A stretch of 64,000 nucleotides of DNA from Chloroflexia bacterium. Lineage in GTDB: Bacteria; Chloroflexota; Chloroflexia; Thermomicrobiales; UBA6265. Both the position numbers and the translations under genes were made by a program. This document shows positions 9,668 to 26,857 of the stretch, one piece after another. Under the pieces are notes generated by a model. It was not told the origin of the DNA and ran no database searches. It saw nothing but the letters and a program-made list of their open reading frames with translations. The stretch covers positions 77,502 through 141,501 of the forward strand of contig JBHWTK010000033.1 of NCBI GenBank assembly GCA_043427975.1, given 5' to 3'. Each line of letters opens with the position of its first letter. Positions within the stretch are counted from its first letter, which is position 1.

Positions 9668-10476
9668 GCCAGCCAGCGGATAGCGCGCCGCACAACGACG
9701 GGAGTCATGAGGGCGGATGTGATGATCGATGCCGCCAGAGCGAGATTGTGATGTGATTCCGTCCCGGCGCCAGTAGACGGCAATGCACTCACAACCGGGA
9801 CCGCAGGTGCAGGCGGCACGCCGTCCGTTGATCCAGATACGTTCACCACTGAAGGTGGCGCGCCGGAAGCGGGAATCGTCGACGCCGGAGAGGCCTGTGG
9901 CTCGCTCACAGGCGGTACAGGCGGGGTCGGGGAGGCTTGCGGAGAAGGCGGCATATTACCGGGAATGGAAGCGTCAAATGGGGCCGGGTCATCGACGTCA
10001 ATCACGCCGTCGTTGTCGTCATCCAGATCGAGGTCATCGGCCATGCCATCGCCATCGATATCGGAACCGTGAGTTCCTGGCTCGGGCTCTAGGGGCGCGG
10101 AGGTGCCGGGCACCGCCGGGTTGTATGGATCTGGATCTTCGTCATCCATCACCGTGTCGCCGTCGGCGTCGAGATCGAGGTCGTCAGCCAAACCGTCGCC
10201 ATCAATGTCGGAACCGTGAGATCCCGGCTCAGGCCTGGGAGGCCCAGAGGTGCCGGGCACCTCCCGGTTTAGAGGTTCAGGATCATTGATATCGGTCACG
10301 CCATCACCGTCGTCATCAGCATCAAATTCGTCCGGCTGGCCATCCCTGTCTGTGTCGACGGGGAGTGACATGGCGGGGAGCAACGGTGCGTAACCAACAG
10401 AGGCAGCAGCCAGGCCAGTCTGCAGGAGCAGCAGTGATACGACCACCGGCATCACGATAAGAACTCGCAGCTTCAT
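9664..10476 (-). CDS. LPXTG-anchored secreted protein with thrombospondin type 3-like Ca-binding repeats
   Basis: Signal peptide; DxDxDGxxD repeats (DTDRDGQPDE, DIDGDGLADDLDLDADGD, DIDGDGMADDLDLDDDNDG); ~49-aa internal tandem duplication; C-terminal LPSTG, then a hydrophobic stretch and an RRAIR tail. Confidence 0.75.
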   Translation of the reverse strand: MKLRVLIVMPVVVSLLLLQTGLAAASVGYAPLLPAMSLPVDTDRDGQPDEFDADDDGDGVTDINDPEPLNREVPGTSGPPRPEPGSHGSDIDGDGLADDLDLDADGDTVMDDEDPDPYNPAVPGTSAPLEPEPGTHGSDIDGDGMADDLDLDDDNDGVIDVDDPAPFDASIPGNMPPSPQASPTPPVPPVSEPQASPASTIPASGAPPSVVNVSGSTDGVPPAPAVPVVSALPSTGAGTESHHNLALAASIITSALMTPVVVRRAIRWLA

Positions 10477-10772
10477 CGGCGACTCCCTTGAAGATGATCG
10501 TATTACATCCGTTTATGGTCCAACTGGTTGCAACATAATAAGAATCCAGACACATGTCAACGACTCCAGAACCCGTTGTGGCTATTTCGGACATTTAAGC
10601 CGTACGTACAGAGTCCGATCTGAACGGATGCCCCTCGTACCTTCAGCGGCGATTGATATGACGCCGCATTGTTCGACCGGCGGAACAACTTCTGCGAAGG
10701 GGATTCCAGCCGGGATCAGGATGCTCACGTCCGATTTCGCGGCAGCCGCTATGTTCGCAAAGGAGTCCCCAC

Positions 10773-11564
10773 ATGTCTGTGATTTCATCACATCAACGCA
10801 TAGCTGATGACGTGGTTCACGTCCGCTACCTGTTTACCAATGTCTATCTGGTCGGAGGTCCCGATGGGTGGGTGCTCGTCGACGCTGCGATGAAGGGCGC
10901 AGGAGACGATATCGCAAAGGCAGCAGAGCACTATTTTGGCGAGGGAACCCGGCCAGAGGCAATCGTTCTCACGCACGGGCACTTTGATCATGTTGGCGCG
11001 ATTGAGGAACTCCTCGATCGGTGGGACGTCCCGGTATGGGCGCACCAGCTGGAATTGCCACACCTCACTGGTCGGGAGGACTACATTGAACCGGATCCAA
11101 CAGTGGGCAAGGGGGCTATGGCGCTCCTCTCGTTCAGCTATCCCAATGCTGCGATTGACCTGGGTGCACGAGTACAGCCGTTGCCTGCCGATATGTCAGT
11201 TCCGCACCTTCCGGATTGGAAGTGGATCCATGTGCCTGGCCACACCAACGGGCAGGTGGCGTTGTTCCGTGAAAGCGACCGAACGCTGATTGCCGGTGAC
11301 GCGTTTGTGACCGTCGAGCAGGAATCCCTGTACAAGGTCGCTACGCAAAAAGAAGAAGTGCACGGCCCTCCCGCGTACTTCACTCCGGATTGGGAATCGG
11401 CACGGGAGTCAGTCCGCATCCTGGCGGAACTCTCGCCGGAAATTGGTGCCACCGGGCACGGCACTCCGATGCGTGGCGAGGCCCTGCGGGACGGGTTGCG
11501 ATCGCTGCTTGAGAATTTCGATGAAATCGCTATTCCGGATAGCGGCAAGTACGTGCCGGACTAA
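10773..11564 (+). CDS. MBL-fold metallo-hydrolase
   Basis: Metal-binding motif THGHFDHVGA; 263 aa. Confidence 0.85.
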   Translation: MSVISSHQRIADDVVHVRYLFTNVYLVGGPDGWVLVDAAMKGAGDDIAKAAEHYFGEGTRPEAIVLTHGHFDHVGAIEELLDRWDVPVWAHQLELPHLTGREDYIEPDPTVGKGAMALLSFSYPNAAIDLGARVQPLPADMSVPHLPDWKWIHVPGHTNGQVALFRESDRTLIAGDAFVTVEQESLYKVATQKEEVHGPPAYFTPDWESARESVRILAELSPEIGATGHGTPMRGEALRDGLRSLLENFDEIAIPDSGKYVPD

Positions 11565-11645
11565 CACGCACGGTCTCGTTGCCCGAAAACGACGAACCGG
11601 CCAGGCGAAGAGCCTGGCCGGATTGCTGTACCTGATGGTTCCAGT

Positions 11646-11690
11646 GGGGTGCCTAACGGGTTTCGAACCCGTAACCTCTTGTTCCACAGA
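11646..11690. repeat. attL: 45-bp direct repeat, a displaced 3' fragment of tRNA-His (anticodon loop to 3' end, with CCA)
   Basis: ggggtgcctaacgggtttcgaacccgtaacctcttgttccacaga is identical to 25988-26032; there is no 5' half of a tRNA here. Confidence 0.9.
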
Positions 11691-11818
11691 AAAGACTTGG
11701 TGCTAAGTTGCGTATGGGGCAGTTCGGCCCGGTTTGCGAAAAAGCCCATAAAATCCACGAAAACGGCTCATACTTTGTGGCAGAGTTTGGTAAAATAAGG
11801 GTTAGACGGGCGGAGTGT

Positions 11819-11850
11819 TCACGCCGCCATCACGCCGCCATCACGCCGCC
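11819..11850 (+). repeat. 3 x TCACGCCGCC at 11-bp spacing (candidate integrase arm-type sites, left arm)
   Basis: Copies at 11819-11828, 11830-11839 and 11841-11850; the same decamer recurs three times at 25883-25922. Confidence 0.6.
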
Positions 11851-11872
11851 GAGCACTGAGGGAACGTTCCAC

Positions 11873-13153
11873 ATGGCCGTAACACCACGCTACCGAATGG
11901 TGAAGAACCCGGAGACGGGCAAGAAGGAACCGGTGTACGCGAAGAAGAAGGGCGGTGGCATCCGGCTGGATAGCGAGGGCAAGCCGATACGCGAGGTTGT
12001 CAGCTGGAAGGTGGAAGTATGGGGTGTTGATGCCAGTGGTATGCGGCGGCGCAAGGTGGTAGGCAGCTACACCTACAAGGACGATGCCAAGCGAGCGGAG
12101 CGGGATGCGCTGCGAGCGATTGAGACGGGCGTGTTCGAGTGGGAGGAACGAAAGCCGGAGCCGGAGACGATCATTCCAAGCGTGCGCGAGGCGTGCGAGA
12201 CATGGATACGGCTAAAGGCGCTGAAGATAGAGCAAAACACGGTGAGCTCCTATGAGGGCGTATTGAAGAACCATATTGGCCCGGTGTTCGGAGACGAACA
12301 TGTGACGACCGTGACGCACGAGATGGTGCAGAGATGGGTTCTCGACATGCAAGAGGCCGGCAGGCATGCGCAGACAATCAGCCGTTCGCTGGTGGTGTTG
12401 AGTGGTGCGCTAGACCGGCAAGTACGCAGTGGCCTGCTAAGCGCAAACCCGGCGCTGGGCGTTGAGAAGCCGAGTGTCAACAAGGGCAAGAAAGACGTGG
12501 CACAGTGGAGCGCCGAACAGGTAGCAGCGTTCTTTGAGGCCGCCAGCGCTCACGACTATGCACCGGCGTTCTGGTTAGGTGAGCTGGAAGGCATGCGCCG
12601 GGCGGAAATCCTGGGCTTGCGTTGGAGCGATATACGCGGGCTGGATACGGACGGCGGCCCAGTGGTGGCGAGCATTGCGCAGACGTGCGTTGCCGACCAA
12701 CGCAACGGCGGCCGGGCGTTGCTGCAACCGAAGGCCAAAACCCGCAGTTCGGAGCGGGCGATTCTGCTCACACAGCCAACGGTAGAGGCGTTGCGACGAC
12801 ACCGCGATAAGCAGGCGTTCATCCGTAAGCAGGCGGGCGATGCGTGGCAGGCGCATGACCTGGTGATCTGTAACGAACTGGGCGAGCCGATACGGCCAGC
12901 GTGGTTCACGATCTGTACAAAGCGGATGGTGAAGGAAGCCGGGCTGCCAGAACTGACACCGCATGCGCTCCGACACCATGCGCTTACCCGGCTGCTGAGG
13001 CAGGGTGTAAGCCCGGCCTTGGCAGCACAGAAGGCTGGGCACAGCGATGTTGGGCTGGTGTATCGGAGCTATGGGCACTTGGTTCAGAGCGACCAGAGCG
13101 CGGCAAATGCGGCCATTGAACGCGAGCTAGCGACCGGTACAGGCCAGAGTTGA
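11873..13153 (+). CDS. int: tyrosine-type site-specific integrase
   Basis: C-terminal catalytic blocks HALRHHALT and GHSDVGLVYRSYGHL; basic N-terminal arm-binding-like domain; start set at ATG 11873 (MAVTPRYRMV) rather than 11708. Confidence 0.9.
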   Translation: MAVTPRYRMVKNPETGKKEPVYAKKKGGGIRLDSEGKPIREVVSWKVEVWGVDASGMRRRKVVGSYTYKDDAKRAERDALRAIETGVFEWEERKPEPETIIPSVREACETWIRLKALKIEQNTVSSYEGVLKNHIGPVFGDEHVTTVTHEMVQRWVLDMQEAGRHAQTISRSLVVLSGALDRQVRSGLLSANPALGVEKPSVNKGKKDVAQWSAEQVAAFFEAASAHDYAPAFWLGELEGMRRAEILGLRWSDIRGLDTDGGPVVASIAQTCVADQRNGGRALLQPKAKTRSSERAILLTQPTVEALRRHRDKQAFIRKQAGDAWQAHDLVICNELGEPIRPAWFTICTKRMVKEAGLPELTPHALRHHALTRLLRQGVSPALAAQKAGHSDVGLVYRSYGHLVQSDQSAANAAIERELATGTGQS

Positions 13154-13237
13154 CAGAATCCATGATGGCGGGTTAGGATGCGTTTACCGAACGGGAGGTT
13201 CGGCGAAAACGAATTTTGGCACATGGGTGCACCGCAA

Positions 13238-13300
13238 AGGCGGGCGACTTGTGAGGATGAACCGGATATTCCGGCCTCGCAGTCGCCCGCCTCTTTCGTT
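13238..13300 (+). terminator. long hairpin terminator between int and xis
   Basis: 12-bp arms aggcgggcgact (13238-13249) and agtcgcccgcct (13281-13292) enclosing the palindrome ccggatattccgg, followed by ctctttcgttttcg. Confidence 0.55.
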
Positions 13301-13342
13301 TTCGAGATTTGATCGGCGTAAGCCGGAAGGGAGGATATTCAG

Positions 13343-13582
13343 GTGGTTACTGCACGACGGAAGCCCGGCGCGGCAAGCCCGTTGGTTGACGCTAACGAAA
13401 TGGCGCAGGCGCTCGGAATCAGCAAATGGAGCGTTTACGAGGGCGCGAAAGCCGACACTCTGCCGATTCCGACGCTCAGAATCGGCAAGCGGTCGTACAG
13501 GTGGTCCCGTGCGCAGCTCGAAAAGCTGCTCGCAGGTGAGCTGGAGCCACGTGATGCTGGCGGTGGCGGAGATGATCGGTAA
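13343..13582 (+). CDS. excisionase/AlpA-like helix-turn-helix DNA-binding protein
   Basis: 79 aa; MAQALGISKWSVYEGAKADTLPIPTLRIGKRSYRWSRAQLEKLL resembles the excisionase-family HTH; GTG start with a GGGAGGA RBS. Confidence 0.7.
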   Translation: MVTARRKPGAASPLVDANEMAQALGISKWSVYEGAKADTLPIPTLRIGKRSYRWSRAQLEKLLAGELEPRDAGGGGDDR

Positions 13583-13671
13583 CGCGAAGTTTGGGGCCTG
13601 GAAAAGCCCGGCACTCTCTCCAGACGGCCGGGCTTATCCAAGACATGAAGCGCTTACCCGTGAAGCGATAG

Positions 13672-15024
13672 GTGAAGCACATGGACACTGTAGCACACGA
13701 CAACACGAACGAAATACGCTTTCCGCGTGCCTACGTTCATCATGCGCTGGAGGGCAATTTGCTTGACGCCGGGTTGTCGCTGGTTGCCAGCCCGCAGGGC
13801 TTCCGGGCATTGTGGACGAATGCGGATACCAAACAGCCCATAACGTCCGGTGGTGTGGCAGATGCCACCCGATATGGCTCGGAGTTATACGCCATGCACG
13901 AAGTCATACCGGAGCACATCGAACCAGCGTTGGCAATGGTGACACCGAGCGGCGCTGCCGTCGTGGACTGGGACGCTGACAAAGGGCCGCGCCCGCTTGG
14001 CTTGCCCACGGGCCGCAGTTCAATAGGGCCGTACGAGACTACGCGGGGCGGAGCGCACTGGTTTACCGCGCTGCCAGCGCAAGTGGACCTCGTTTCCAGC
14101 CACGATTCTGGAGAACTCAGAGCTGGGCCGAACAGCTACACGATCGTCTGTCCGTCTCCGGGGAAAGAGGCATGGCGGGCGGCTGGTGGCGCGTTCAACA
14201 TGCTGCCATGGCCGTTGCTGCCCGAAGACGGTAGCCTGTGGCTGAATTACTTACGTGCAGGTGTTCGTCGGGAACACATGGCGGAGATCATCGCCCGCGA
14301 CATTACGCAAGCGGACCGCAGGCAGGCGGATACGATCACAACGAACCTGCTGAAGGGCCGGTTCGGCAGCACCGTCACAGCGATTCTCAGAGGCGAGATC
14401 GAAGACCGTTATCCGAGCCGGAGCGAAGCCGACTTCGCGCTGCTATTCATGGCAACGCACTTCGATGCTTCCGAAGGCTGCCTTGCCGAACTGCTGTTTC
14501 GTCATTCACGAAAACTCCGTGACAAGCATACGGCCGCTTCGCAATCGTCATACATATCCAGCACCGTTTCCGCTGCCCTTGCCACCCGTTCACTCACCGA
14601 CTACACCCGGCTCGCGAACATTGCCCAGATTCTCCATTTCTCCACCTTGCCCTTTTCCATTCCCCACCCCACACCACCACATAGCCGCAAGGTGTGTATG
14701 TTGCCAGAAAACGGAATATGGGTGGTTGGAGGAATGGCGGAGAGACGGAAAAAGGAGCGCGGAGAAATGCTGGCCGCAAGCATTCTGGAATGGGCTGGCA
14801 GGTATGGAGCTGGTGACGGTTACGACTGGACTGACGGCTGGAGGCGATTGCCGGTTGAGGACATGGGCGCGATTCATGGATACGGTCGAGAGGGCGTGAG
14901 GACGAAGGTTCTAGCGCTCATTGATGCTGGATTCATCGAACGCAGGCTGCATGTTGCGAAGTGCGACAAGGGACACGACCGGCGCACAACGTTGATTCGA
15001 TTAACAAAGGGAGCACAGAGATGA
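13672..15024 (+). CDS. putative replication protein with prim-pol (bifunctional primase/polymerase)-like N-terminal domain
   Basis: Order of blocks KQPITSGG...AAVVDWDADKG...TTRGGAHWFTALP...YTIVCPS matches the prim-pol pattern (DxD metal site, sGGxHxyF, PpS); C-terminal half unassigned. Confidence 0.55.
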   Translation: MKHMDTVAHDNTNEIRFPRAYVHHALEGNLLDAGLSLVASPQGFRALWTNADTKQPITSGGVADATRYGSELYAMHEVIPEHIEPALAMVTPSGAAVVDWDADKGPRPLGLPTGRSSIGPYETTRGGAHWFTALPAQVDLVSSHDSGELRAGPNSYTIVCPSPGKEAWRAAGGAFNMLPWPLLPEDGSLWLNYLRAGVRREHMAEIIARDITQADRRQADTITTNLLKGRFGSTVTAILRGEIEDRYPSRSEADFALLFMATHFDASEGCLAELLFRHSRKLRDKHTAASQSSYISSTVSAALATRSLTDYTRLANIAQILHFSTLPFSIPHPTPPHSRKVCMLPENGIWVVGGMAERRKKERGEMLAASILEWAGRYGAGDGYDWTDGWRRLPVEDMGAIHGYGREGVRTKVLALIDAGFIERRLHVAKCDKGHDRRTTLIRLTKGAQR

Positions 15025-15509
15025 GCAGCGAGGGACTGAGGCCACTGATCGCATATTTCGACCTGACACAAGGGCCGCTTAGTTTGCAGCAGGCAATGAA
15101 CGCGCTAGGCGTTCAGAATCCGCGCAAGCTGCGCTACGCACAGTTGGAGGGCCGGGACACGTTGATTCACGACCCGAAAACAATGTCTCACAGTGCGCGA
15201 AGGCGCTACAGACGAGCATCTGGTGAAGATGCCTGGAAGGTGCTACAGGCGCTGGTTGAGGTTTCGGTACCCATTGGGCCGATGGTTGAAGCGATGTCTC
15301 ACGAAGCGAAAAGAGGCGCTGAGATGCTGGCAGCGTTGGCAGCTGACGACCCACGGGTATTGAAGTACATGCAAGTTGACGGCGGAGGAATGCTGGTACG
15401 TGACCCGTCCGCATTCACCGACGAAGAGCTACATGAGTATCTGGACATATTCGGTCCCGATCATCTGGAGGCAGTCAAGGCCAGTATCACAAAGCACTTC
15501 GGCGACTAG
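15021..15509 (+). CDS. hypothetical protein (island)
   Basis: ATG at 15021 overlaps the previous stop (ATGA coupling); no recognisable motif. Confidence 0.5.
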   Translation: MSSEGLRPLIAYFDLTQGPLSLQQAMNALGVQNPRKLRYAQLEGRDTLIHDPKTMSHSARRRYRRASGEDAWKVLQALVEVSVPIGPMVEAMSHEAKRGAEMLAALAADDPRVLKYMQVDGGGMLVRDPSAFTDEELHEYLDIFGPDHLEAVKASITKHFGD

Positions 15510-15540
15510 AGCGGCATAGCCCGCAAGGAGGAACACCATC

Positions 15541-16077
15541 ATGGCACAGCGAACAGGGTGTGACCGGCCTATTGGTAGCGCGGCAATGGACGGCGAACCG
15601 GGCACCGGGATAGCAGCGCTGGAACAGCGAACACGAACAACGCTGGAAGAGCTGCACACGGCACGAGATGCATATAGCGAGGCTATTGAGGCGCACGCTG
15701 CAAGCGAACGGATGCTACTGCGAGCGCGGCGCGAAGCGCTGGAAGCTGACGCAGCGGCGGCGCTGGGGTTGGAGCGCTCTCAACTGGAGACCGCGATTAG
15801 CGCGGCGGCGCAAGCATCGCGTGCTCAGACCGGCGTTGTCGTGGCTGACGGCATAAACGGAGCCTGGCCGAAATGGCTAGCTCCAAAGATGCAGGAGGCG
15901 GCCGCGCAATGCGGGCCGGATGAAATACCGGGCGTGCTTTTGGTTCGTGGCCTAAGTGGCAGCACGCGGGAAGCGGACCCTGCAACAGCGCTTGTGCTTG
16001 ATACAACGGGCCGGGTGTCGCGGCCTCTATCCGGGCTTACAGCGAGCGAACTGGCACGTCGAAGGAGCAGCCGGTAA
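15541..16077 (+). CDS. hypothetical protein (island), Ala-rich helical
   Basis: 178-aa ORF co-directional with its neighbours; no recognisable motif. Confidence 0.45.
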   Translation: MAQRTGCDRPIGSAAMDGEPGTGIAALEQRTRTTLEELHTARDAYSEAIEAHAASERMLLRARREALEADAAAALGLERSQLETAISAAAQASRAQTGVVVADGINGAWPKWLAPKMQEAAAQCGPDEIPGVLLVRGLSGSTREADPATALVLDTTGRVSRPLSGLTASELARRRSSR

Positions 16078-16099
16078 CGGATGCGGAGAGGATCTTAAG

Positions 16100-16591
16100 A
16101 TGCCACCTTGCACGGTTTGTACACATCCAAAACGGCTACACATTGATCGGGCGCTAGTTACCGATGGTGCAACCGTGCGAGACACAGCGCGTAAGTTTGA
16201 CGTGACCGTTTCCGCACTTGGCAGGCACCGCAAGAACCATTTGGCACCGGCGCTCGCAAAGCATGAAGAGCATTTCGATTTGGCGACAGCTCAAGGTATC
16301 GGCAACCAGCTTGCCACCATTCACGCGGAGGCAACGCGGTTGCTGCACGAGGCCCGCGAGGACGGAAACCGGCGCGATCAGCTATCAGCACTCGCACGGC
16401 TGGAGCGGCAGATCGAGTTAGCTGCAAAGCTCGCAAGCCTGATTCAAGACGGCCAGAGAGTAGCCGTGTCGGTGCAACTTGATACCGGCTGGCCGCTGGT
16501 TCGGAGCGCGATTCTCGAAACCCTGGCTAACCATCCGGCGGCATTGCAGGCGGTGAGCGAACGATTGGCGGCGCTGGAGCAACCAACATGA
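16100..16591 (+). CDS. putative terminase small subunit (CxxC plus HTH N-terminus)
   Basis: MPPCTVCTHPKRLHIDRALVTDGATVRDTARKFDVTVSALGRHRKNH; stop overlaps the start of the terminase ATPase ORF (ATGA). The call is based on position plus the HTH. Confidence 0.5.
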   Translation: MPPCTVCTHPKRLHIDRALVTDGATVRDTARKFDVTVSALGRHRKNHLAPALAKHEEHFDLATAQGIGNQLATIHAEATRLLHEAREDGNRRDQLSALARLERQIELAAKLASLIQDGQRVAVSVQLDTGWPLVRSAILETLANHPAALQAVSERLAALEQPT

Positions 16592-17346
16592 ACGCGGTCG
16601 CTGACCTTGCCAAGGATTTGCGCCTGCGGTTGGATGCGAACGCGCTGGCCGAGCACTGCGGCTACGATCTGGACCCGTGGCAACGGGAGCTGGTGCAAAG
16701 CCCGGCAAAGCAAGTGCTGATAGCGGCAGCGCGGCAGGTTAGCAAGACGTTAGCTTGCAGCATCGTTGCAGCGTTTGAAGCATTGCGCTTGCCAGACGGT
16801 TTGATCGTGGTTGTATCGCCTAGCCAACGCCAAAGCACAGAGCTATTCCGGCAGGTTGTGGAGTTGCTACGTAAGGCAAAGCTGGAATCAATCACGGCTG
16901 AAAGCTCCATGCGGTGCGAGTTGGCAAACGGCTCGCGTGTGGTAGCACTGCCGGGCAGCTCGCAAACCATTCGCGGACTAAGCGGGGCGCGGGCGATCAT
17001 CGTTGACGAAAGCGCATTCGTGCCGGACGAACTGTACGCGGCGGTGCTGCCTATGGCGGCCACAAGTGACGGGCGCTTGATTCTGGCATCGTCACCGGCT
17101 GGCACGGTGGGCTACTTCGCTAGGCAGTGGCGGGATGGTGGCGAGACGTGGCAGCGGGTGAAAGTGCGAGCTGACCAATGCAGCCGGATTAGCCCAGAGT
17201 TCCTTGCACGGCAGCGGTTGATGCTGACCGCACAGCAATATGCAGCCGAGTTTGAAGCGGAATTTGTCGAGGGTGCGGGCGCGGTGTTCCGGGCCGATGA
17301 TCTGGCACGACTGCATGAAGAGCCGGTAGCGGCATGGGAGGTTTGA
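16588..17346 (+). CDS. terminase large subunit, ATPase domain only (N-terminal half)
   Basis: Deviant Walker A AARQVSKT, Walker B AIIVDES, PWQRE block typical of TerL N-termini; ends after about 250 aa. Confidence 0.65.
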   Translation: MNAVADLAKDLRLRLDANALAEHCGYDLDPWQRELVQSPAKQVLIAAARQVSKTLACSIVAAFEALRLPDGLIVVVSPSQRQSTELFRQVVELLRKAKLESITAESSMRCELANGSRVVALPGSSQTIRGLSGARAIIVDESAFVPDELYAAVLPMAATSDGRLILASSPAGTVGYFARQWRDGGETWQRVKVRADQCSRISPEFLARQRLMLTAQQYAAEFEAEFVEGAGAVFRADDLARLHEEPVAAWEV

Positions 17347-17348
17347 GC

Positions 17349-18116
17349 ATGGACACAAAGCGACGATACACCGGAGAGAATGGCAATTACGCAACGAACG
17401 TAGACCGCGATAGTGGAGCCTATGCGGGTGCAAGGCACCGTGTGAAGGGCTTTGAACCGGACGTGCCAACCGGGCCGGAAAAACTGAACGTGCAGGTTGG
17501 CATTGACGCGGGCCAGATTGGAGACAGCACGGCGGTTTCAATCTCGGAGTGGACTGCCCGCAATGATGGTTTGCATTTCATGGTGCGGCGGCTGGAGCGG
17601 CTGCCGCTTGGGCTGCCATACCCTGCACAAGCTGACCGCATTGTTGAAATTCTGGAAGGGCTGCGGGCGATGTCTGCTAAGTGGGAAGCCGAAGGTACGG
17701 GGGTCATGGACATTCTCACGGTGCTAGACGTTACTGGCGTCGGGCGCGGCCTATTCGATCTGCTGACAGAACGCGGCGAAACGATAGTGCCCGTCACCAT
17801 CACCAGCACCGAACGGCTTACACAGCGCGATGATGCTGAATGGAGTTGCGGCAAGAGCGTGCTAGTGAGCAACCTGCTTATCGGCATTCAGCGCGGCGCG
17901 GTTCACCTGCCACAAGGCACAGAGGCAGAGGCGCTGCTATCGGAGCTGCAAAGTTTCCGGCTGCAAGAGACGCCGAGCGGAAAGCTGACGTTCAACGCGA
18001 AGAGTGGTTCACATGACGATCTGATTACGGCCCTGGGATTATCGACACTGCCGGGGTTGCGGCCACCGGAGCCACCGGGCTTTTACGGCATGGCAGTTGT
18101 GAAAGGCGGCTGGTGA
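17349..18116 (+). CDS. terminase large subunit, RNase H-like nuclease domain only (C-terminal half)
   Basis: VGIDAGQIGDSTAV, VLDVTGVGRG and SGSHDDLITALGLS acidic blocks typical of the TerL nuclease; different frame from the ATPase ORF (alternative ATG at 17334 overlaps it by 13 nt). Confidence 0.6.
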   Translation: MDTKRRYTGENGNYATNVDRDSGAYAGARHRVKGFEPDVPTGPEKLNVQVGIDAGQIGDSTAVSISEWTARNDGLHFMVRRLERLPLGLPYPAQADRIVEILEGLRAMSAKWEAEGTGVMDILTVLDVTGVGRGLFDLLTERGETIVPVTITSTERLTQRDDAEWSCGKSVLVSNLLIGIQRGAVHLPQGTEAEALLSELQSFRLQETPSGKLTFNAKSGSHDDLITALGLSTLPGLRPPEPPGFYGMAVVKGGW

Positions 18117-18415
18117 TGCGCGACCAACAGGAGACACAATTTCGCTGGCCTGATGACGGCAACGCGGTGAACGTTACCCGTGATGCCCTGGCGAGCATTT
18201 CAATGCCGGAGATTGTCGACTACGTGCTGCCTGGCCTTTCCGGCAAGGCGGTGCTGGCCGCTTGGATGCTGGCAACCGGAGCGGACGCGAGCGCAGTACG
18301 GCGAACCCTGAACATCACACCGGAAACGCTACGAGCCTATTGCGGCTCGATTCTGGACGCGACGCAGGCACACAGTGGCGAAACGATCATCTTGCCAGTT
18401 GGAGGGAAACCATGA
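18113..18415 (+). CDS. hypothetical protein (island)
   Basis: 100-aa ORF; start overlaps the previous stop (GTGATG). Confidence 0.45.
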   Translation: MMRDQQETQFRWPDDGNAVNVTRDALASISMPEIVDYVLPGLSGKAVLAAWMLATGADASAVRRTLNITPETLRAYCGSILDATQAHSGETIILPVGGKP

Positions 18416-18624
18416 GCACACAGACCAAAGGCGAGCGGCTTGCCGAGATAGCCGAACGGTCGGAAGGCACAGCAACGCACGCGCTGGCAGAGATACGCAT
18501 ACTCCGGCCGGATGGTGGCTACGCGGCTAACGTGCATCGTGATCTTGTAGCGACATTAGAAACCCTGGAGCGGATGACTGACCAACTGCGTTATGCGCAA
18601 CAGCGTGATCGGGGTGCATTGTGA
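18412..18624 (+). CDS. hypothetical small protein (island)
   Basis: ATG at 18412 overlaps the upstream stop (ATGA); 70 aa. Confidence 0.4.
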   Translation: MSTQTKGERLAEIAERSEGTATHALAEIRILRPDGGYAANVHRDLVATLETLERMTDQLRYAQQRDRGAL

Positions 18625-18857
18625 GTGAACGGATTGAATCCCGGTTGCTGACAGCGGCCGCGGCGATCAAAGCACCACTGCGGACACTGACAGACGCAAC
18701 CACAGACGCGGCGCAATCGAACTGGGAGCTTGCACATTGGCAACGTTCGGATGCTTGCCAAGAGGTGTTTGAGAGCTGCCACCAACTGCAACAGGCAATC
18801 GATAATGCCGAGCGGATGCTTTCACAAGCGCCACCGCTACCAAAGCGCAAACGATGA
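18621..18857 (+). CDS. hypothetical small protein (island)
   Basis: GTG start overlapping the upstream stop; 78 aa with a basic C-terminus KRKR. Confidence 0.4.
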   Translation: MSERIESRLLTAAAAIKAPLRTLTDATTDAAQSNWELAHWQRSDACQEVFESCHQLQQAIDNAERMLSQAPPLPKRKR

Positions 18858-18957
18858 AACACAGCCGAAGTGGAGAGATGCAAGCGGCTTGGACCAATAC
18901 CGGGCCGCTTTTGCGTTGTGGAAAGAAGACGAGGCGTTTATTTGCCCTGTAAGCGTA

Positions 18958-19055
18958 GAAAAGGGGTGAACCCTAGTCAGTACCCGCGTAACGGGCTATC
19001 GAATTAGCTACCCGGCAAAGAGTTGCAAACAGCGGCATGTTCGCATGATGTTCTG
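18958..19055 (+). repeat. imperfect direct repeat R1 (about 95 bp)
   Basis: aaagggGTGAACCCTAGTCAGTACCCgcGTaAcGGCTATCGAATTagCTACCCGGCAAAGAgtTGCAAAC... aligns with 19755-19865 at roughly 80% identity by eye. Confidence 0.75.
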
Positions 19056-19103
19056 AATTTAAGGGGTCTTTGAAACTTGGGGACCTAGTGATACCCTGAA
19101 AAG

Positions 19104-19601
19104 ATGAAGCTAGTTATACTCAGCGGGCCCACGGGCGCCGGTAAAAATACGATAGCGGAATTGGTAGCGCAGCAGCGGGGTCGGTGTGCGGGGATCGACT
19201 TCGATGTGCTCCGCAATATGTTTCTTAAGCCCCATTTGACTCCTTGGGACGGCGACGCCGGGCATCGTCAGAACGTCTTGGGCGTTGACCATGCCTGTAT
19301 GTTGGCTAGCAGCCTCCTTGCCAATGGCTATGACTGCATAATCCTGGATGTGTTGAGTGATGAAACGGCATCCTTATACAAGGAAAGACTGAGTCACCAC
19401 GATCCGGTCATCGTTCAGCTTTTACCCACATATGACGAAATACTGAGGCGGAATCGTACGAGACCGCCTCGGCTGACTGATGAGGAGCTGGAAATGGTGT
19501 ACCAAGGTCAACTGGAGTTTTCGATGTTCGACGAACGAATAGACAACACTGGTCTTTCACCTCAAGAGGCGGCAGATCGCATTCTCGCGATGATTGCATA
19601 G
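19104..19601 (+). CDS. small P-loop NTPase/kinase (AAA_33 / zeta-toxin-like fold class)
   Basis: Walker A ILSGPTGAGKNT at residues 5-16; 165 aa; lines sampled here are about 43-50% GC by hand count versus about 60% in flanking host genes. Confidence 0.65.
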   Translation: MKLVILSGPTGAGKNTIAELVAQQRGRCAGIDFDVLRNMFLKPHLTPWDGDAGHRQNVLGVDHACMLASSLLANGYDCIILDVLSDETASLYKERLSHHDPVIVQLLPTYDEILRRNRTRPPRLTDEELEMVYQGQLEFSMFDERIDNTGLSPQEAADRILAMIA

Positions 19602-19754
19602 ATGATAAGTTCAAGCTGCATATCTCGACGTAGCACCTCACCGGCGTAGAAATCACCTAGGAATCCAGCAGATAGAAGACTATTCAGCACCATTCCGCCC
19701 AGTGGAAGAAGCGTGGCCTGGATAAAGTAGCCCTAGGATCGATTCTAAGCGCCT

Positions 19755-19865
19755 GAAAGGGCTGCACCCTAGTCAGTACCCATGTGAATGGCTATCGAAT
19801 TCCCTACCCGGCAAAGAATCGCAAACTCGGACATGCTCGCGTTGTGTTCGGAACTGATGTTCTGG
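19755..19865 (+). repeat. imperfect direct repeat R2 (partner of R1)
   Basis: gaaagggCTGCACCCTAGTCAGTACCCatGTgAatGGCTATCGAATTccCTACCCGGCAAAGAatCGCAAAC... Confidence 0.75.
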
Positions 19866-19911
19866 ATTGGCACCACGGTTGCAACGTAGGTGACTAACGG
19901 TCAGCGAGCCC

Positions 19912-21584
<1,673 letters not shown>

Positions 21585-21627
21585 ATCGCGAGAGTACCTG
21601 TTAGCACATTGAAGAATGGCAGGTGAT

Positions 21628-22389
21628 ATGGAACTAGCCCTTGTGATTGCGATTGTGGCGGCCGGATTTGCAGGCTGGACGGCCTGGGAATCCCGACGAT
21701 CTGCGGGCGCTGCTTTGGCATCCGCAAAGGCGGCGGAGAGTTCGGCGGCAGCGTCACAAGTGGCCGTGCAACTGGAATCAAAACGGTTCGAATGGGAGCA
21801 GAGCGCACGACTTGCGCTCACAGAGCGGAGTGCATATCAAGGCCACCTAAACACCGTGCTGGCTGCCCAGCTGAACAACGTGGTGAATGCGGCAGTGAAT
21901 GACTGGCCGGAGTACATCGCTTTTGAGTTCCGAAATGTCGGGCAAGCACCAGCCACCGATATAGATGTTCAAGCGCATTATCTGGGAGATGTGTTCAGGC
22001 CGCAAGACAGCGTGAAGGCAACGGTGGCGAGTGGTGAGACGGTGCACTTCGTTTTCAATGTGAAGACGTTTCCAACCGGACGTGCTGACATGATGAAATT
22101 TCTATTGCTCGTCAAATACCACGATATTCGGCCGCATGAGCTGGCACTACAAATGGCCGTTTACTCAAAAACCGGAGGGCCGGACAATCCGTATCTTGCA
22201 CATAACAAAGACGGTGCCTTCTACAAGCCTTCGGTTGTTCTGGCAGAGCTTGACGGTGCTCGGCACGAAGAGATGGAAACCGGCGACGTCGTTTGGGTGG
22301 ATGCGTCGCTAAAGATAGCTCGCGAGGAACGGAGACGAATGCGACGCGGCGATTTCGAATCAGGTGCAAAACAACCGTCCACTATGTAG
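21628..22389 (+). CDS. membrane-anchored hypothetical protein A1 (paralogue of 23235-23921)
   Basis: N-terminal hydrophobic helix MELALVIAIVAAGFAGWTAW followed by ESRRSAG; C-terminal domain with a FRNVGQAPA block reminiscent of a beta-sandwich; start at ATG 21628, supported by the conserved upstream GGCAGGTGAT. Confidence 0.7.
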   Translation: MELALVIAIVAAGFAGWTAWESRRSAGAALASAKAAESSAAASQVAVQLESKRFEWEQSARLALTERSAYQGHLNTVLAAQLNNVVNAAVNDWPEYIAFEFRNVGQAPATDIDVQAHYLGDVFRPQDSVKATVASGETVHFVFNVKTFPTGRADMMKFLLLVKYHDIRPHELALQMAVYSKTGGPDNPYLAHNKDGAFYKPSVVLAELDGARHEEMETGDVVWVDASLKIAREERRRMRRGDFESGAKQPSTM

Positions 22390-22416
22390 CGTTCGCATTC
22401 GATGGGCAGGGGAGAG

Positions 22417-23166
22417 ATGAGCAAGCCAAGCCGCAAAAGCAAGCGACAGCCGCGCCTTGGCATTTGCGTGTACTGCGGCATAAGCGGCGAAGTCACGAGA
22501 GACCATGTGATTCCCCGTGGCATGTTCCACCACCGAGCGAACTCCACCTTTACCGTTGATGCTTGCAGGGCATGTAACGTGGACAAGTCCAGATACGATC
22601 CTGAGCTGCGAGATTTTGCAATATCGAACATGAACTCGGGTCAGCATCCATACCACGACGAGATATTGCACCGCATGTTCCGAGCAGTAAGCCGTAATCA
22701 ATCGCGGATTGGAAGGCGTATCAAGTGGCTAGCAAGGCCACGGACGTTCGTGCATAACGGCGAGATTATCGACGGAGTTTCAGTCCCTATCGACGGAGAG
22801 GACCAGCGAAAGGCTGTTGCGTACATCGCCAAAGCGGTTTGGTATCGGCATTTCGATGAGGTGGCAACGGACGGCATGTTGGAGAGCCGATATTTTGACA
22901 TGTTCGCAATCAAGCCGGAGGTGATGATGCTGGAGATCACGGAATCGCAGCCGCCAATCCAGTTGCTCGACAAGGAAGGTGTCGCGCTCATCTGTGGTTG
23001 GCCGTTCGTTGTTGGTGATCGGGGTCGAAAGGTACTGTTCATAACTATGCGCTTCTATGGTGGCCCTGCTTATAGCGTTGTGATGGACAATCGCCGTAGT
23101 GAGCCGCTCGAAGATGAAGTGCCGATAGCCAAGATCGTGGCAAGCGGTGATCGTGCCGACGATTAA
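22417..23166 (+). CDS. HNH endonuclease-motif protein with uncharacterised C-terminal domain
   Basis: CVYCGISGEVTRDHVIPRG...CRACNVDKS (CxxC...DH...CxxCN..K beta-beta-alpha-metal finger); about 185 aa downstream unassigned; start ATG 22417 with a GGGGAGAG RBS (alternative 22402). Confidence 0.75.
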   Translation: MSKPSRKSKRQPRLGICVYCGISGEVTRDHVIPRGMFHHRANSTFTVDACRACNVDKSRYDPELRDFAISNMNSGQHPYHDEILHRMFRAVSRNQSRIGRRIKWLARPRTFVHNGEIIDGVSVPIDGEDQRKAVAYIAKAVWYRHFDEVATDGMLESRYFDMFAIKPEVMMLEITESQPPIQLLDKEGVALICGWPFVVGDRGRKVLFITMRFYGGPAYSVVMDNRRSEPLEDEVPIAKIVASGDRADD

Positions 23167-23234
23167 TGTTGATCGGTTGATCTATGGTGAGCCGAAAAGT
23201 TGCATGTTAGCTGTTAGAGGGAACGGCAGGCGAT

Positions 23235-23921
23235 ATGGAGCTAACCATTGCAATCCTCGGCTTGACAGTCGCGATTCTTGCCGCCGGATTTGCGGGCTGG
23301 ACCGCGTGGGAATCGCGACGATCTGCCGGTGCTTCTATAGCGTCTGCGAAGGCGGCAGAGAGTTCGGCAGCGGCGTCTGAGAAAGCCGTGCAGCTGGAGG
23401 CGCAGCGTTTTGACTGGGAGCGAACTGCGAGGCTTGTGCTGGTACGAAGAATGGTTAGCATCCATCAAGTTGAGCAGTTCGAGAACGCGGACCATATCCA
23501 ATGGCCAAGCGCGGTGGGACTGGAGCTTTCCAACGCAGGCCAAGCGCCTGCGCTTGGCCTGAAGATAGGGGCCTTGATTCTTGGAGAATATCATTTGCCC
23601 GTGCATTCCCCCAGTCAGTCAATCGGGCCGGGTGATTCAGCAGTCACTTACTTCGAGCTTCGGGATATAACGCTGCCGCCGGATCACTTGCTGCGCATGG
23701 TGGTCACCTGCCAGTATCACGATGTTGGTGCTCACGAATTGACGCTTCACTTGGCGCTTCATTCCAAGTCAGGTGCTCCAACCGATTCCCACCTCAGGCA
23801 CAACCGATATGGCAATTACTACCTGCCGTCAGTCACAGCTGCACGTCTAGACGGCGCGGACCTTGAAGGCTGGGAAACCGGAGACGTAATAGAACTCCGT
23901 AGAGGTGAGCTAAGACACTGA
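23235..23921 (+). CDS. membrane-anchored hypothetical protein A2 (paralogue of 21628-22389)
   Basis: MELTIAILGLTVAILAAGFAGWTAWESRRSAGASIASAKAAESSAAAS is nearly identical to A1; shared C-terminal YHD..HEL..SK.G.P..H.N..Y.PSV..LDGA..ETGDV. Confidence 0.7.
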   Translation: MELTIAILGLTVAILAAGFAGWTAWESRRSAGASIASAKAAESSAAASEKAVQLEAQRFDWERTARLVLVRRMVSIHQVEQFENADHIQWPSAVGLELSNAGQAPALGLKIGALILGEYHLPVHSPSQSIGPGDSAVTYFELRDITLPPDHLLRMVVTCQYHDVGAHELTLHLALHSKSGAPTDSHLRHNRYGNYYLPSVTAARLDGADLEGWETGDVIELRRGELRH

Positions 23922-24052
23922 ATCAGCCATCAACCTGATGCTCTGTCACCTTGGTTGCAGTATCGGAAGCCAACTGGGACGCACCGAATTGTAGCTCGGA
24001 CGCCTCTATTGTTTGACGACTATGAAGTAGTGCAAAGCGTAAGGAGCGACAC

Positions 24053-25834
24053 TTGACTGAGGTAAATGAAGCGGCTGAAATCGATCCGATTACTACTTTG
24101 GCGGTCTCGATGCAGGCCCAGCAAGGCACATTTGCTTTACTTCTCGGTTCTGGCGTATCGCAATCCGCACAGATTCCAACCGGATGGGCTATTATCGAGG
24201 ACTTGATTAGGCGCATCGCCAAAGTCGAGGGCCATGAGATTCAAGGGAAGCCCACAGACTGGTACCAGGAAACCTACGGCGAAGAACCTGACTACAGTCG
24301 ATTGCTTGACGCACTATCAACGACCCCACTGGAACGAAGCCAGATCATCAAGCGGTTCATTGAGCCAACAGAAGAAGAGCGTGAGGTAGGGGTGAAGCAG
24401 CCGACCTTAGCGCACCGGTCGATTGCCTCACTCGTTGCCAAGGGCTACGTCAAAGTCATCGTCACTACGAATTTTGACCGGCTGCTCGAAACGGCATTGG
24501 CTGACGCAGGGGTGGTGCCTTCGGTGATTAGCACACCCGATGACGTCCAGGGGACACTGCCCTTGGCGCACAACGCTTGTACCATCATCAAAATCCATGG
24601 TGACTATCTTGATTCCCGCATTCGCAATACCACCGACGAGTTGTCTAACTACCCGGTAGAGATGAGGAACCTCTTATCCCAGGTGTTTCGGGAGTATGGG
24701 CTAATCGTGAGCGGCTGGTCAGGGGATTGGGATCACGCGTTGTGCGAGGCGATGTGTGAGACGTTAAGTCCGTGGTTTCCCACGTACTGGGTTTCCTATC
24801 GAGAACCAGGTAAGAAAGCGCAGGGGATTGTCGAGCAGCGGGGCGGCAAGCTGATAACAAACATGGGAGCAGACGCATTCTTTGAACGGTTGGCAGACAG
24901 CGTTGCAGCGGTGGAAGATATGCAGAATCCTGAACTGGTCTCCGTTGATATTGCTGTAGCAACGCTGAAACGGTATCTTGATGATCCTTCCAAGCGCATC
25001 CGTCTTCACGATTTGGTGATTGGGGAAGCTACCCGTGTTCAACGGTCACTCATCGAAGTTCCGGCAGGTTATTTCCTTGAGAACCCAACCCAGGAATCCG
25101 TCGTCAATCGATTGGAATCTTATGAAGCGAGTACCGCTGTACTTCGGGCTCTATTTATCACCGGATGTTACTGGTCGGCAGATGACCACGATCTCCGCCC
25201 TTGGGTTACTGCGCTGGAGCGCCTTGCTGCCTTAGGAAATGGACCAGGAACCTTCCATCGTCATTGGGTAGCGCTACGGCGATACCCGGCACTCCTAACG
25301 CTTTTTGCCGGCGGAATTGCCGCGCTGGCGAACCGTCGGTTCAAGACTCTCCATGCGTTGCTCTATCAACCGGCATCAATTGATATTTATCGACATGAAC
25401 GCAATCCCATGGTCATTTCTGTCCATCAGGCGTTGTTCGAACCGGTGGCCGATCTTCTCTATCCCGGATACTACTCCGACACAGCCGCAAGCCTGCGAAT
25501 GCGAAATACCGAATCTCTGTGGTCGGTGCTGCGAGAATACGTCCCGGACCAAGATCGATTCAAAGAGCTGTTCAACGAGTTCGAGTATCTATTCGGGCTC
25601 GTCCACACAGACTTGGCTCACCAGCATGATTTCGGCGCGTGGTATCCAACCGGTCTACTTCCATACCTTGGGCACGGTTATGACCGTGACAAACTAATCG
25701 AGCGGATGGACAGGGAGGTTCAGGAAATGCAGAGCCAGTGGCCACCGTTGCAAGCTGGGATGTTTAGCGGGTCACTCGGACGGTTACAGGAGGTCAAACA
25801 AGAATTCGATGAACGGCTGAAGAAGCGTCATTAG
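24053..25834 (+). CDS. SIR2_2-family (sirtuin-like) protein with about 300-aa uncharacterised C-terminal region
   Basis: FALLLGSGVSQSAQIPTGW (Gly-rich NAD loop), VIVTTNFDRLLE, IIKIHGDYLD; TTG start 7 nt after AAGGAG. Confidence 0.8.
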   Translation: MTEVNEAAEIDPITTLAVSMQAQQGTFALLLGSGVSQSAQIPTGWAIIEDLIRRIAKVEGHEIQGKPTDWYQETYGEEPDYSRLLDALSTTPLERSQIIKRFIEPTEEEREVGVKQPTLAHRSIASLVAKGYVKVIVTTNFDRLLETALADAGVVPSVISTPDDVQGTLPLAHNACTIIKIHGDYLDSRIRNTTDELSNYPVEMRNLLSQVFREYGLIVSGWSGDWDHALCEAMCETLSPWFPTYWVSYREPGKKAQGIVEQRGGKLITNMGADAFFERLADSVAAVEDMQNPELVSVDIAVATLKRYLDDPSKRIRLHDLVIGEATRVQRSLIEVPAGYFLENPTQESVVNRLESYEASTAVLRALFITGCYWSADDHDLRPWVTALERLAALGNGPGTFHRHWVALRRYPALLTLFAGGIAALANRRFKTLHALLYQPASIDIYRHERNPMVISVHQALFEPVADLLYPGYYSDTAASLRMRNTESLWSVLREYVPDQDRFKELFNEFEYLFGLVHTDLAHQHDFGAWYPTGLLPYLGHGYDRDKLIERMDREVQEMQSQWPPLQAGMFSGSLGRLQEVKQEFDERLKKRH

Positions 25835-25882
25835 CATTTACGTTGAGGTAGCAGAGGAGGCGAGCGAAGAGATGCGAAATCA

Positions 25883-25922
25883 TCACGCCGCCAAATAGCA
25901 TTCACGCCGCCGTCACGCCGCC
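25883..25922 (+). repeat. 3 x TCACGCCGCC (candidate integrase arm-type sites, right arm)
   Basis: Copies at 25883-25892, 25902-25911 and 25913-25922, in the same orientation as the left-arm copies. Confidence 0.6.
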
Positions 25923-25987
25923 ACGAAAAACAGTGAACCGGCCACCCTGTATGAGTGGCCGATTTCCTTGATTCTATAGGGTTTCCG

Positions 25988-26032
25988 GGGGTGCCTAACG
26001 GGTTTCGAACCCGTAACCTCTTGTTCCACAGA
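25988..26032. repeat. attR: 45-bp direct repeat inside the intact tRNA-His gene
   Basis: Identical to 11646-11690. Confidence 0.9.
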
Positions 26033-26062
26033 CAAGCGCTCTGCCGTTGAGCTATAGGCACC
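25990..26062 (-). tRNA. tRNA-His (anticodon GTG)
   Basis: Cloverleaf with extra G-1 opposite C73, acceptor GTGCCTA/TAGGCAC, anticodon loop CUGUGGA, TTCGAAA T-loop; followed by CCC rather than CCA. Confidence 0.9.
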
Positions 26063-26074
26063 GTGTAAACGTGT

Positions 26075-26415
26075 TTGAAGAAGGAGGTGTAAGCCGAGTT
26101 CTGTTCTAAATGGTCATCTCTCTCAACCCGGAGGCTGGTCACATCGTCGCCTTTGTGACGGCTCTCGACTTCCGGCCTTGGCGAGCAGCCTAATTGCGGC
26201 CGAATCGGAGATTGCTGCGGGGAGGATTGCCCTTTTCACTCCGCGGTCGCCCGCGGCTTTGGTCTCTGTTGCTCTCGCACGGTTGCCCGTACGCCAATCT
26301 GGACTGTCGATCCGCCAAAGCGGACCTCCCTGGTTTTCACCAGGCACCCTTGCTCTACGCAGCCCGGACTTTCCTCTGGTAGCATGTGCCACCAGCGACC
26401 ATCCCCTTGCTTCCC
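26075..26415 (-). ncRNA. rnpB: RNase P RNA (bacterial type A)
   Basis: Minus strand contains AGAGGAAAGUCCGGGCUGC (26362-26375 region) and ACAGAACUCGGCUUAC (P4 strands), plus UUAGGCUGCU...GAUGACC...; ends estimated from P1 pairing GAAGCAAGG/CCUCCUUCUUC. Confidence 0.85.
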
Positions 26416-26857
26416 AAGCACGTTAACATCTTAAGGTGCGGCTGCGTATGCACGCAGCATCGCCGTCCCTTCGCTACCGCTCAGGGCACCCGTATTTATA
26501 CATCATTCCCTCCTGGATGTCACACGCTTTGCCAAGCCACATCTGCCAACAAGGCGGGACCTCCTGGCTCGCGACTCTCTCCCAAGATCAACTGAATCAC
26601 CATCCATAAGCTTCCCCGAAATGGAGTCGGATCACGTGCATCCAGCCCGCGTCGGTATATTGGTGACTGGTGGTTAGGCTAATTCGCACGTCTCCTCTCG
26701 ACTTAATTTTGCGAAGTCGTGGGTTTACGGATATGGTTTTGGTAGGGTGATGTCAGAAGGTCTGTTGTCATTCGTTTATTGGGGACGCATTTGGCAACGT
26801 ATGTCGGATGCGAGCAGCGTGCACGTTAGTCGGCTTTGAGGCCGGCGGGAGGTAGTG

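Follow-up and report, generated by a model that had tools for sequence, protein, structure and literature searches.

The locus described here is a four-gene array in a 64,000-nt stretch of DNA from an uncultured Chloroflexia bacterium (GenBank assembly GCA_043427975.1, contig JBHWTK010000033.1, forward-strand positions 77,502 to 141,501), referred to below as the window, in whose numbering coordinates are given unless another locus is named. The array lies at the right attachment (attR) end of a 14.4-kb integrated element (11646-26036) inserted in tRNA-His. The element is termed satellite-like because no structural genes were recognised among its genes in 11646-26036. From a six-frame list of open reading frames (ORFs), the array was read as four plus-strand genes in the order A1-HNH-A2-SIR2, separated by 27, 68 and 131 nt:

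21616/21628-22389, plus strand: A1, 253 aa from the ATG at 21628; transmembrane (TM) helix, Ala-rich stalk helix, beta-sandwich and A1-type C-terminal domain
22402/22417-23166, plus strand: HNH, 249 aa from 22417; zinc-finger HNH region of ~60 aa at the N-terminus and C-terminal domain of ~180 aa
23235-23921, plus strand: A2, 228 aa; paralogue of A1 with an A2-type C-terminal domain
24053-25834, plus strand: SIR2, 593 aa; SIR2_2 and PADLOC PDC-S65 protein with an N-terminal SIR2 domain of NADase type and an all-alpha C-terminal domain

The ATG at 21628 was taken as the start of A1 because the leader and ribosome-binding site are common to A1 and A2. SIR2 starts with TTG, preceded by AAGGAG 6 nt upstream. 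No terminators were predicted between the array genes, but the promoter and terminator scans gave no more than shuffled sequence would and are uninformative. All four genes together were found again only in reads of the same organism (L093-L095). An earlier reading of this DNA from its letters alone (the original prediction) had proposed that the array is an undescribed anti-phage system in which a duplicated membrane-tethered partner precedes two effector-type enzymes, or else two related two-gene modules. Its account of the parts was accurate: coordinates and gaps agree exactly with the ORF list, and the paralogy and membrane tether of A1 and A2, the HNH and SIR2_2 assignments and the placement at the tRNA-proximal cargo end of an integrated element are all borne out by the results given below.

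The SIR2 protein was searched against PADLOC-DB v2.0.0 and Pfam. It was called as PDC-S65, a phage defence candidate, with model PDLC05061 matched at E = 1.7e-194 and 646 bits (residues 9-591 against model positions 15-588 of 592) and PDLC05060 at E = 1.7e-115, and it matched Pfam SIR2_2 above threshold (E = 8e-12). A PADLOC search had been set beforehand as a check on the novelty of the array, and this call counts against a new system. The PADLOC phage defence candidates comprise 145 untested single- and multi-gene candidates predicted through their embedding in BREX, DISARM and type I restriction-modification (R-M) loci (Payne et al., 10.1101/2024.01.29.577857). No literature mention of PDC-S65 and no published phenotype for the family were found. 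At E <= 1e-10, 2,896 homologues were recovered, nearly all of ~580-600 aa, and in the family alignment the TTNFD motif, which contains N140, was invariant and H182, within K-x-H-G-D-Y, nearly invariant. The AlphaFold2 (AF2) model (predicted local distance difference test score, pLDDT, 86) comprised a Rossmann-type SIR2 domain to about residue 290 and an all-helical domain at ~298-593. Foldseek comparison of this model returned DSR2 (E = 1.4e-8) and the SIR2-APAZ protein of SPARSA (E = 1.6e-8), and also ThsA and KomC; superposition was good for the SIR2 domain alone, with TM-scores of 0.61-0.69 against isolated SIR2 chains and a whole-chain root-mean-square deviation of ~20 Å.

A genome scan with the single SIR2 protein as query gave zero relatives. 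With an alignment as query, and each GTDB species represented by one genome, 592 relatives were found, of which the best 80 were extracted with 5-kb flanks (L005-L084). IMG/VR added 21 viral or proviral contigs with members of the family; these, the 80 genome loci and the locus of the closest homologue (L004) make up the 102 SIR2-family loci referred to below. Neither an A-family hidden Markov model (HMM; E <= 1) nor the HNH protein had a match in the 80 genome loci, and a broader HMM that included distant A-like proteins, run with an HNH-family HMM, detected no A-like or related HNH protein in the 102 loci; the sole match of the broader search in SIR2 loci, to a 590-aa ORF at E = 0.0012, was rejected as spurious. 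Within three genes on either side of the 80 SIR2 genes, 429 proteins fell into 399 clusters, and the sizes and strands of the neighbours varied. The only recurrent neighbours were subunits of type I R-M systems (HsdM in 8 of the 80 loci, HsdS in 8 and HsdR in 4), which fits the discovery of the PADLOC candidates through R-M and BREX embedding (10.1101/2024.01.29.577857). HsdS lay directly upstream of SIR2 in six loci, often with overlaps of 4-8 nt, and about 10% of the family loci were inside type I R-M operons. Many members of the family were flanked on both sides by divergently transcribed genes. At the closest homologue (71% identity), nucleotide similarity to the window was confined to the ORF (24080-25832) and the upstream neighbour was divergently transcribed. 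The SIR2 gene is therefore taken to move as a single-gene cassette, and presumably works as one.

A1 and A2 are identical at 100 of 220 aligned positions (45%, E = 2e-52). In the A proteins a single 19-mer is strongly hydrophobic (Kyte-Doolittle 1.8-2.2); it falls within residues 1-21, and ESRRS comes next. The AF2 model of A2 (19-sequence alignment, pLDDT 85.5) contains a continuous helix at 2-62, made up of the TM segment and an Ala-rich stalk of ~35 residues, and a seven- or eight-stranded beta-sandwich at 67-205. The topology is predicted to be N-out/C-in, with the sandwich in the cytoplasm, because the N-terminus is acidic and the TM helix is followed by RR. A1 and A2 matched no family in Pfam, PADLOC, NCBIfam or PHROG. 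Among 5.8 billion proteins, four A-family matches were found by a word-indexed search. A profile search, run over 1.84 billion representatives, found five at E < 1e-30 and behind these a weak tail of proteins of ~180-220 aa with the same layout, that is, a TM helix, a helix of the pattern S-x-R-S-A-x-A-A...S-A-x-A-A and a beta domain with N-x-G-x-x-P-A. No A-family relatives were recovered in the JGI metagenome scan or the IMG/VR scan, and tblastn of A2 against phage genomes gave no matches; an alignment of A proteins had diverged too far to yield search patterns. Foldseek comparison with the PDB returned generic Ig-like sandwiches only (adaptin ear, ASF1, archaeal pilins), all at E > 1e-3, and comparison with BFVD returned weak matches to uncharacterised phage membrane proteins. 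Identity as a type IV pilin or a spanin was considered and rejected, because a class III leader, a positively charged N-terminus and an o-spanin partner are all lacking. Judged by these searches, A appears to be a new, very rare and lineage-restricted family of membrane proteins.

The two halves of the A proteins have diverged to different extents, as the following identities show (P0002 and P0125 being other members of the close family):

A N-terminal identity within the close family: 54-88% (A1-A2 78%; P0002-P0125 88%; cross-pairs 67-68%)
A C-terminal identity within the close family: 22-57% (A1-P0125 57%; A2-P0002 51%; between types 26-34%)

By this comparison C-terminal domains group by type and N-termini by source. 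The N-termini compared were those encoded at 21628-21830 and 23235-23440 of the window and those of L003 and L085, and their likeness within a source could stem from old gene conversion, from C-terminal allelic exchange or from co-adaptation. Between the N-terminal parts of A1 and A2, dN/dS was ~0.1, indicating strong purifying selection, and synonymous sites were saturated (proportion of synonymous differences, pS, 0.64; Nei-Gojobori method). Because saturation extends even to the conserved N-terminal part, the duplication is taken to be old, and a recent duplication or gene conversion of A1 and A2 was ruled out on the same grounds.

A genes were then compared at the other loci at which they were recovered. 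L086 is a sister element at the same host locus, marked by tRNA-His, tRNA-Leu, tRNA-Thr, a tetratricopeptide repeat protein and RuvB, and its gene order is integrase, split terminase, CBASS (cyclic oligonucleotide-based anti-phage signalling system) cyclase and two-TM effector, a fused methyltransferase-Mrr gene (MTase-Mrr), one A gene, 135 nt and tRNA-His. The CBASS (L086 6562-7955, minus strand) is of type I by PADLOC (cyclase E = 3e-95; 2TM/SLATT effector E = 2e-39) and sits between the terminase block and MTase-Mrr, where the window has a kinase-like gene; its presence agrees with the original prediction that the element end is a defence hotspot. In L001/L002 the order is an IrrE/helix-turn-helix (HTH) protein, an HTH_31 protein, an A2-type gene and ~200 nt of non-coding sequence that closes with the conserved hairpin and the 3' end of tRNA-His. 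Beside the solitary A genes of L086 and L001, both readable through to tRNA-His, neither HNH nor SIR2 is present. L003 begins within the C-terminus of an MTase-Mrr orthologue (12 residues) and has an A2-type gene 238 nt downstream; in L085 an A1-type gene stands behind a divergently transcribed 173-aa ORF, which was considered as a SLATT protein like that of L086 and rejected, having no similarity to it. MTase-Mrr is thus conserved in L086 and L003, each time just upstream of the A gene, and this resident gene, within one element lineage, is the only recurrent neighbour of A. Around their A genes, L003 and L085 have an upstream leader of ~200 nt and downstream sequence in common, and because these flanks match while the C-terminal types differ, A1-type and A2-type genes appear to behave as alleles of one locus. 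The contexts of distant A-like proteins (L090-L092) are on contigs that are either very short or uninformative.

The HNH protein scored below the gathering thresholds of Pfam (HNH_5 19.3 bits, HNH 13.3 bits). Its membership in the HNH nuclease superfamily is given by a CxxC...DH...CxxC core of the beta-beta-alpha-metal type, invariant in the family alignment (C17, C20, D29, H30, C50, C53), and by a match of the family profile to the HNH endonuclease 4h9d in the PDB (E = 1.5e-5). Close homologues were absent from a word-based search, which gave the protein itself and one weak match. Distant full-length relatives (23-30% identity, 226-267 aa), with an N-terminal HNH core and a C-terminal R...GG motif in common, were found on Burkholderia and Bradyrhizobium plasmids (tblastn) and on IMG/VR contigs. 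In L087 and L096 the relatives lie between oppositely oriented genes and are therefore monocistronic, and an HMM search detected no A-like or SIR2 neighbour at the HNH-family loci. On this evidence the HNH gene is best placed in a sparse family of apparently solitary zinc-finger HNH proteins of ~225-270 aa.

With moderate confidence, we read the array as a set of autonomous accessory genes that probably accreted in an attR-proximal defence hotspot (19.1-25.9 kb) of a satellite-like element, and not as one four-gene system, because SIR2, HNH and A are each kept alone elsewhere and because the corresponding variable region of L086 holds a CBASS. The proposal of a four-gene system or of A-plus-effector modules did not hold: adjacency is not conserved, A is solitary in L086 and L001, and the 102 SIR2 loci are without A. 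The conserved linkage of A-family genes to effector genes that had been anticipated in other genomes was found neither at L086 and L001 nor at the SIR2 and HNH loci. All biochemical activities and the defence role of the array genes are ones that we infer. By analogy with DSR2 and ThsA, SIR2 would be a stand-alone sensor-NADase whose C-terminal domain senses infection and releases NAD+ hydrolysis, leading to abortive infection, and HNH would be a nuclease acting on invading DNA. A is the resident last gene before attR in this element family, solitary in the sister elements, and would act alone at the inner membrane face as an exclusion or defence determinant, its C-terminal domain setting specificity; the window element would then carry two A specificities.

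Several observations weigh against accretion. The alternation of A and enzyme genes, the gaps of 27-131 nt, the common strand and the lack of predicted terminators give the array the look of a paired-module operon. Only two loci, L086 and L001, can be read through to the tRNA, and both belong to one element lineage; the contigs of L003 and L085 end 65 and 27 nt past the A stop codon, so that a further gene could follow. No independent A1-type locus can be read far enough to show what follows A1, and HNH is without close homologues. The N-termini of A1 and A2 are closer to each other (78%) than to their counterparts in another sample (67-68%), a likeness that could reflect co-adaptation for a shared complex. 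The roles of PDC-S65, of this HNH family and of A are themselves putative.

Much of this would be expected if A1 with HNH and A2 with SIR2 formed paired modules, in which A, as a sensor or anchor tethered to the membrane, gates or recruits the soluble effector of the gene that immediately follows. Such an arrangement would account for the alternating, co-directional and closely spaced order and for the within-genome likeness of the A N-termini; purifying selection on the TM segment and stalk together with diverged C-terminal domains is the pattern expected of partner-specific domains, the array lies in a defence hotspot, and the A1-HNH half is without comparative loci. We nevertheless regard it as unlikely, since the A2-type gene of L001 has no SIR2 companion and the A gene of L086 lacks any effector, since no A-like gene was detected at the 102 SIR2 loci (the 71%-identical L004 included), even with the profile of distant relatives, and since A is likewise missing from the HNH-family loci. 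Alternation itself is one in six of the possible orders of two A genes and two enzyme genes and is not statistically striking. A related and doubtful proposal makes A a family of membrane adaptors or sensors in which the TM segment and stalk oligomerise and the swappable sandwich captures a phage cue or docks a downstream effector; a hetero-oligomer of A1 and A2 would fit it, because the N-termini in the window are closer to each other than to their counterparts elsewhere. If true, the otherwise autonomous PDC-S65 SIR2 or HNH would become membrane-localised, gated modules. In a weaker version, A by itself may be a new determinant of exclusion or defence, encoded by a single gene and with specificity domains that vary by allele.

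The constancy of A in the sister elements invites a different explanation, namely that A is a life-cycle or housekeeping membrane protein of the satellite family, concerned, for instance, with helper-phage interference, lysis timing or interaction with the envelope, and that HNH and SIR2 are unrelated morons that inserted beside and between its two copies. A alone recurs at the attR end of all the sister elements recovered (L086, L001/L002, L003, L085), the neighbouring cargo being different; three of its five contexts have the conserved MTase-Mrr ahead of it, and it has no PADLOC match. We consider this improbable: a hypervariable C-terminal domain of two types that appear to exchange at one locus is more arms-race-like than core-like, the position beside CBASS, SIR2 and HNH cargo associates A with defence, and duplication of a core gene would be unusual. 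HNH might instead be the nuclease half of an R-M-like pair with the MTase-Mrr gene 0.8 kb upstream on the same strand, A1 being an unrelated intervening gene. Small HNH proteins do occur among type II restriction enzymes (KpnI, Hpy99I, PacI), but this pairing is very unlikely, as MTase-Mrr is present without HNH in L086 and L003, for which reason it is taken to be a methylase resident in the element, either orphan or anti-restriction, and as no adjacent methyltransferase is annotated at the plasmid and viral HNH relatives. Accretion of autonomous cargo genes thus remains the preferred reading of the array.

The element that carries the array was delimited by a 49-nt direct repeat (11646-11694 and 25988-26036, 98% identical), and the following features were assigned to it and to its insertion site:

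11646-11694, no strand: attL, a duplicate of the 3' part of tRNA-His, with 98% identity to tRNA-His at sister locus L086 as well
11708-13153, plus strand: tyrosine integrase (Pfam Phage_integrase E = 1e-16), orthologue of the L086 integrase
16588-18116, plus strand: large terminase in two ORFs (Pfam Terminase_6N 16588-17346, Terminase_6C 17334-18116); conserved element core
19104-19601, plus strand: small P-loop kinase-like cargo gene (zeta-toxin/CPT/polynucleotide-kinase-like; weak Pfam, NCBIfam and PHROG matches), 165 aa
19950-21584, plus strand: MTase-Mrr (Pfam N6_N4_Mtase 4.7e-44, C-terminal Mrr_cat 2.4e-11 / NA-iREase1)
25936-25964, minus strand: tRNA-His terminator, 12-bp hairpin and T-run, contributed by the end of the element; conserved in L086 and L001
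25987-26062, minus strand: tRNA-His (GTG), the 3' part of which is the attR core (25988-26036)

GC content from 19.1 kb on is 52-57% in the cargo genes as against 59-61% in the element core and the host genes, and the right-hand third of the element is therefore taken to be acquired cargo. The tRNA, the att repeats and the low cargo GC together place the array where the original prediction had put it; the left boundary was corrected from tRNA-Gly 7525 to 11646. tRNA-Gly 7525 was ruled out as an element boundary because the adjoining "integrase-sized" ORF is ComEC, and 7645-11564 holds host genes (ComEC, ComEA and a metallo-beta-lactamase-fold protein). A host ORF at 9664-10476 (minus strand), of no Pfam family, contains a 147-nt tandem duplication (9959-10252, 71% identity). 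The element also encodes a protein with a weak Pfam match to the NrS-1 polymerase HBD, termed primase-polymerase-like here, and several proteins of no recognised family. The split of the terminase is conserved: the block has ~81% nucleotide identity to L086 3332-4854, which is likewise split, and the two ORFs of the window overlap by 13 nt. The split may reflect either a true two-subunit enzyme or programmed frameshifting.

MTase-Mrr has 83-85% nucleotide identity to its L086 orthologue. Its Mrr_cat/NA-iREase1 domain is possibly an inactive PD-(D/E)xK domain, and the protein may serve as a methylase, either orphan or anti-restriction, or as an R-M enzyme in a single chain. The kinase-like gene is flanked by a 108-nt direct repeat (18950-19057 and 19746-19853, 78% identity), a single copy of which lies upstream of the MTase-Mrr gene in L086; the repeat suggests insertion of a cassette with a duplicated intergenic or promoter module. 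Immediately upstream of tRNA-His, on the same strand, lies a class A RNase P RNA (26075-26414, minus strand; RF00010, 103.9 bits); the ORFs listed in this stretch are spurious. A Rfam scan returned tRNA-His and RNase P RNA and nothing else. In L086 a "105-aa gene" (11034-11351) falls inside 10854-11365, which is 93% identical to window 25932-26440, and is probably the same RNase P RNA.

Comparison with named systems upheld part of the claim that the array matches none of them: none of the SIR2 or HNH systems compared fits, but the SIR2 gene is a catalogued PADLOC candidate. The absence of TIR, HerA, pAgo/APAZ, PtuA and Zor partners near the array was confirmed with PADLOC. The window SIR2 has the length of the PDC-S65 family, its TTNFD and near-invariant H-G-D-Y motifs and a full-length model match, and the family is single-gene in habit, with no conserved neighbour among the 80 genome loci; it differs in being cargo of a tRNA-His satellite-like element with an A gene directly 5', a neighbour seen at no other family locus examined. 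With DSR2 it has in common a SIR2 fold with Asn and His of catalytic type and a single polypeptide with N-terminal SIR2 and helical C-terminal regions; at 593 aa it is, however, well short of the ~1,000 aa of DSR2, which includes a C-terminal sensor of ~700 aa, and no DSR1 or DSR2 model was among its 18 PADLOC matches. Thoeris does not apply, as ThsA models match the SIR2 core only (E = 7e-7, residues 95-212), the C-terminal domain is all-helical with no SLOG, and no TIR protein (ThsB) was found among the array neighbours by Pfam or PADLOC. Nor does SPARSA or another SIR2-APAZ system, the Aga_SIR2 models and PDB 8in8 aligning to residues ~22-250 only and no prokaryotic Argonaute (pAgo) gene being present in 19000-26000. 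SIR2-HerA is likewise not represented: the cargo region has no HerA or other large ATPase, and its sole P-loop protein is the 165-aa kinase-like ORF. The structural likeness to KomC (Foldseek) is not accompanied by a KomA/B partner gene nearby. For HNH, Septu was set aside on a PtuB match of E = 0.022 and no PtuA match for any neighbour. The zinc-finger HNH core resembles PDC-M01B (E = 1.2e-6 over residues 20-88, PADLOC), yet the match covers ~65 residues of models of ~290 positions, the M01A partner is absent, and A1 and A2 match no PADLOC model; moreover, the core lies at the extreme N-terminus in the window protein and in mid-protein in PtuB and PDC-M01B.

Prophages and phage satellites are known to have defence hotspots at their ends, as in the P2- and P4-type hotspots and the accessory regions of phage-inducible chromosomal islands (PICIs). 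The element has the same plan, a conserved backbone with a variable, lower-GC block by the att site that holds kinase, HNH and SIR2 genes here and CBASS in L086. It differs in belonging to an uncultured, undescribed element lineage and in that the slot also holds a resident A gene, duplicated in the window. Small membrane-anchored exclusion proteins of prophages and phages, such as lactococcal Sie2009, HK97 gp15 and T4 Imm, may be the nearest likeness to A, which is small, has one N-terminal TM anchor, stands at an element edge and has a rapidly diverging soluble domain. No similarity of sequence or fold to A was detected in the PHROG, PDB, BFVD and phage-genome searches, however, and the A sandwich is predicted to be cytoplasmic.

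Part of this is already known: the SIR2 gene is catalogued as a candidate, satellite hotspot cargo is a known theme, and HNH is an unremarkable member of a sparse family. What is new is the A family, which combines a hypervariable Ig-like domain with a membrane anchor and stalk that are conserved. It serves as a marker of the attR end in this element family and can reasonably be put forward as a candidate new gene of exclusion or defence. An architecture of a duplicated anchor plus two effectors gives way to a typical defence-cargo hotspot in an uncultured lineage, and the array shows by example how genes that happen to alternate in a hotspot can pass for a multi-gene system. For PDC-S65, the array provides a natural mobile context and a compact construct, and it adds to the case that the family is defensive.

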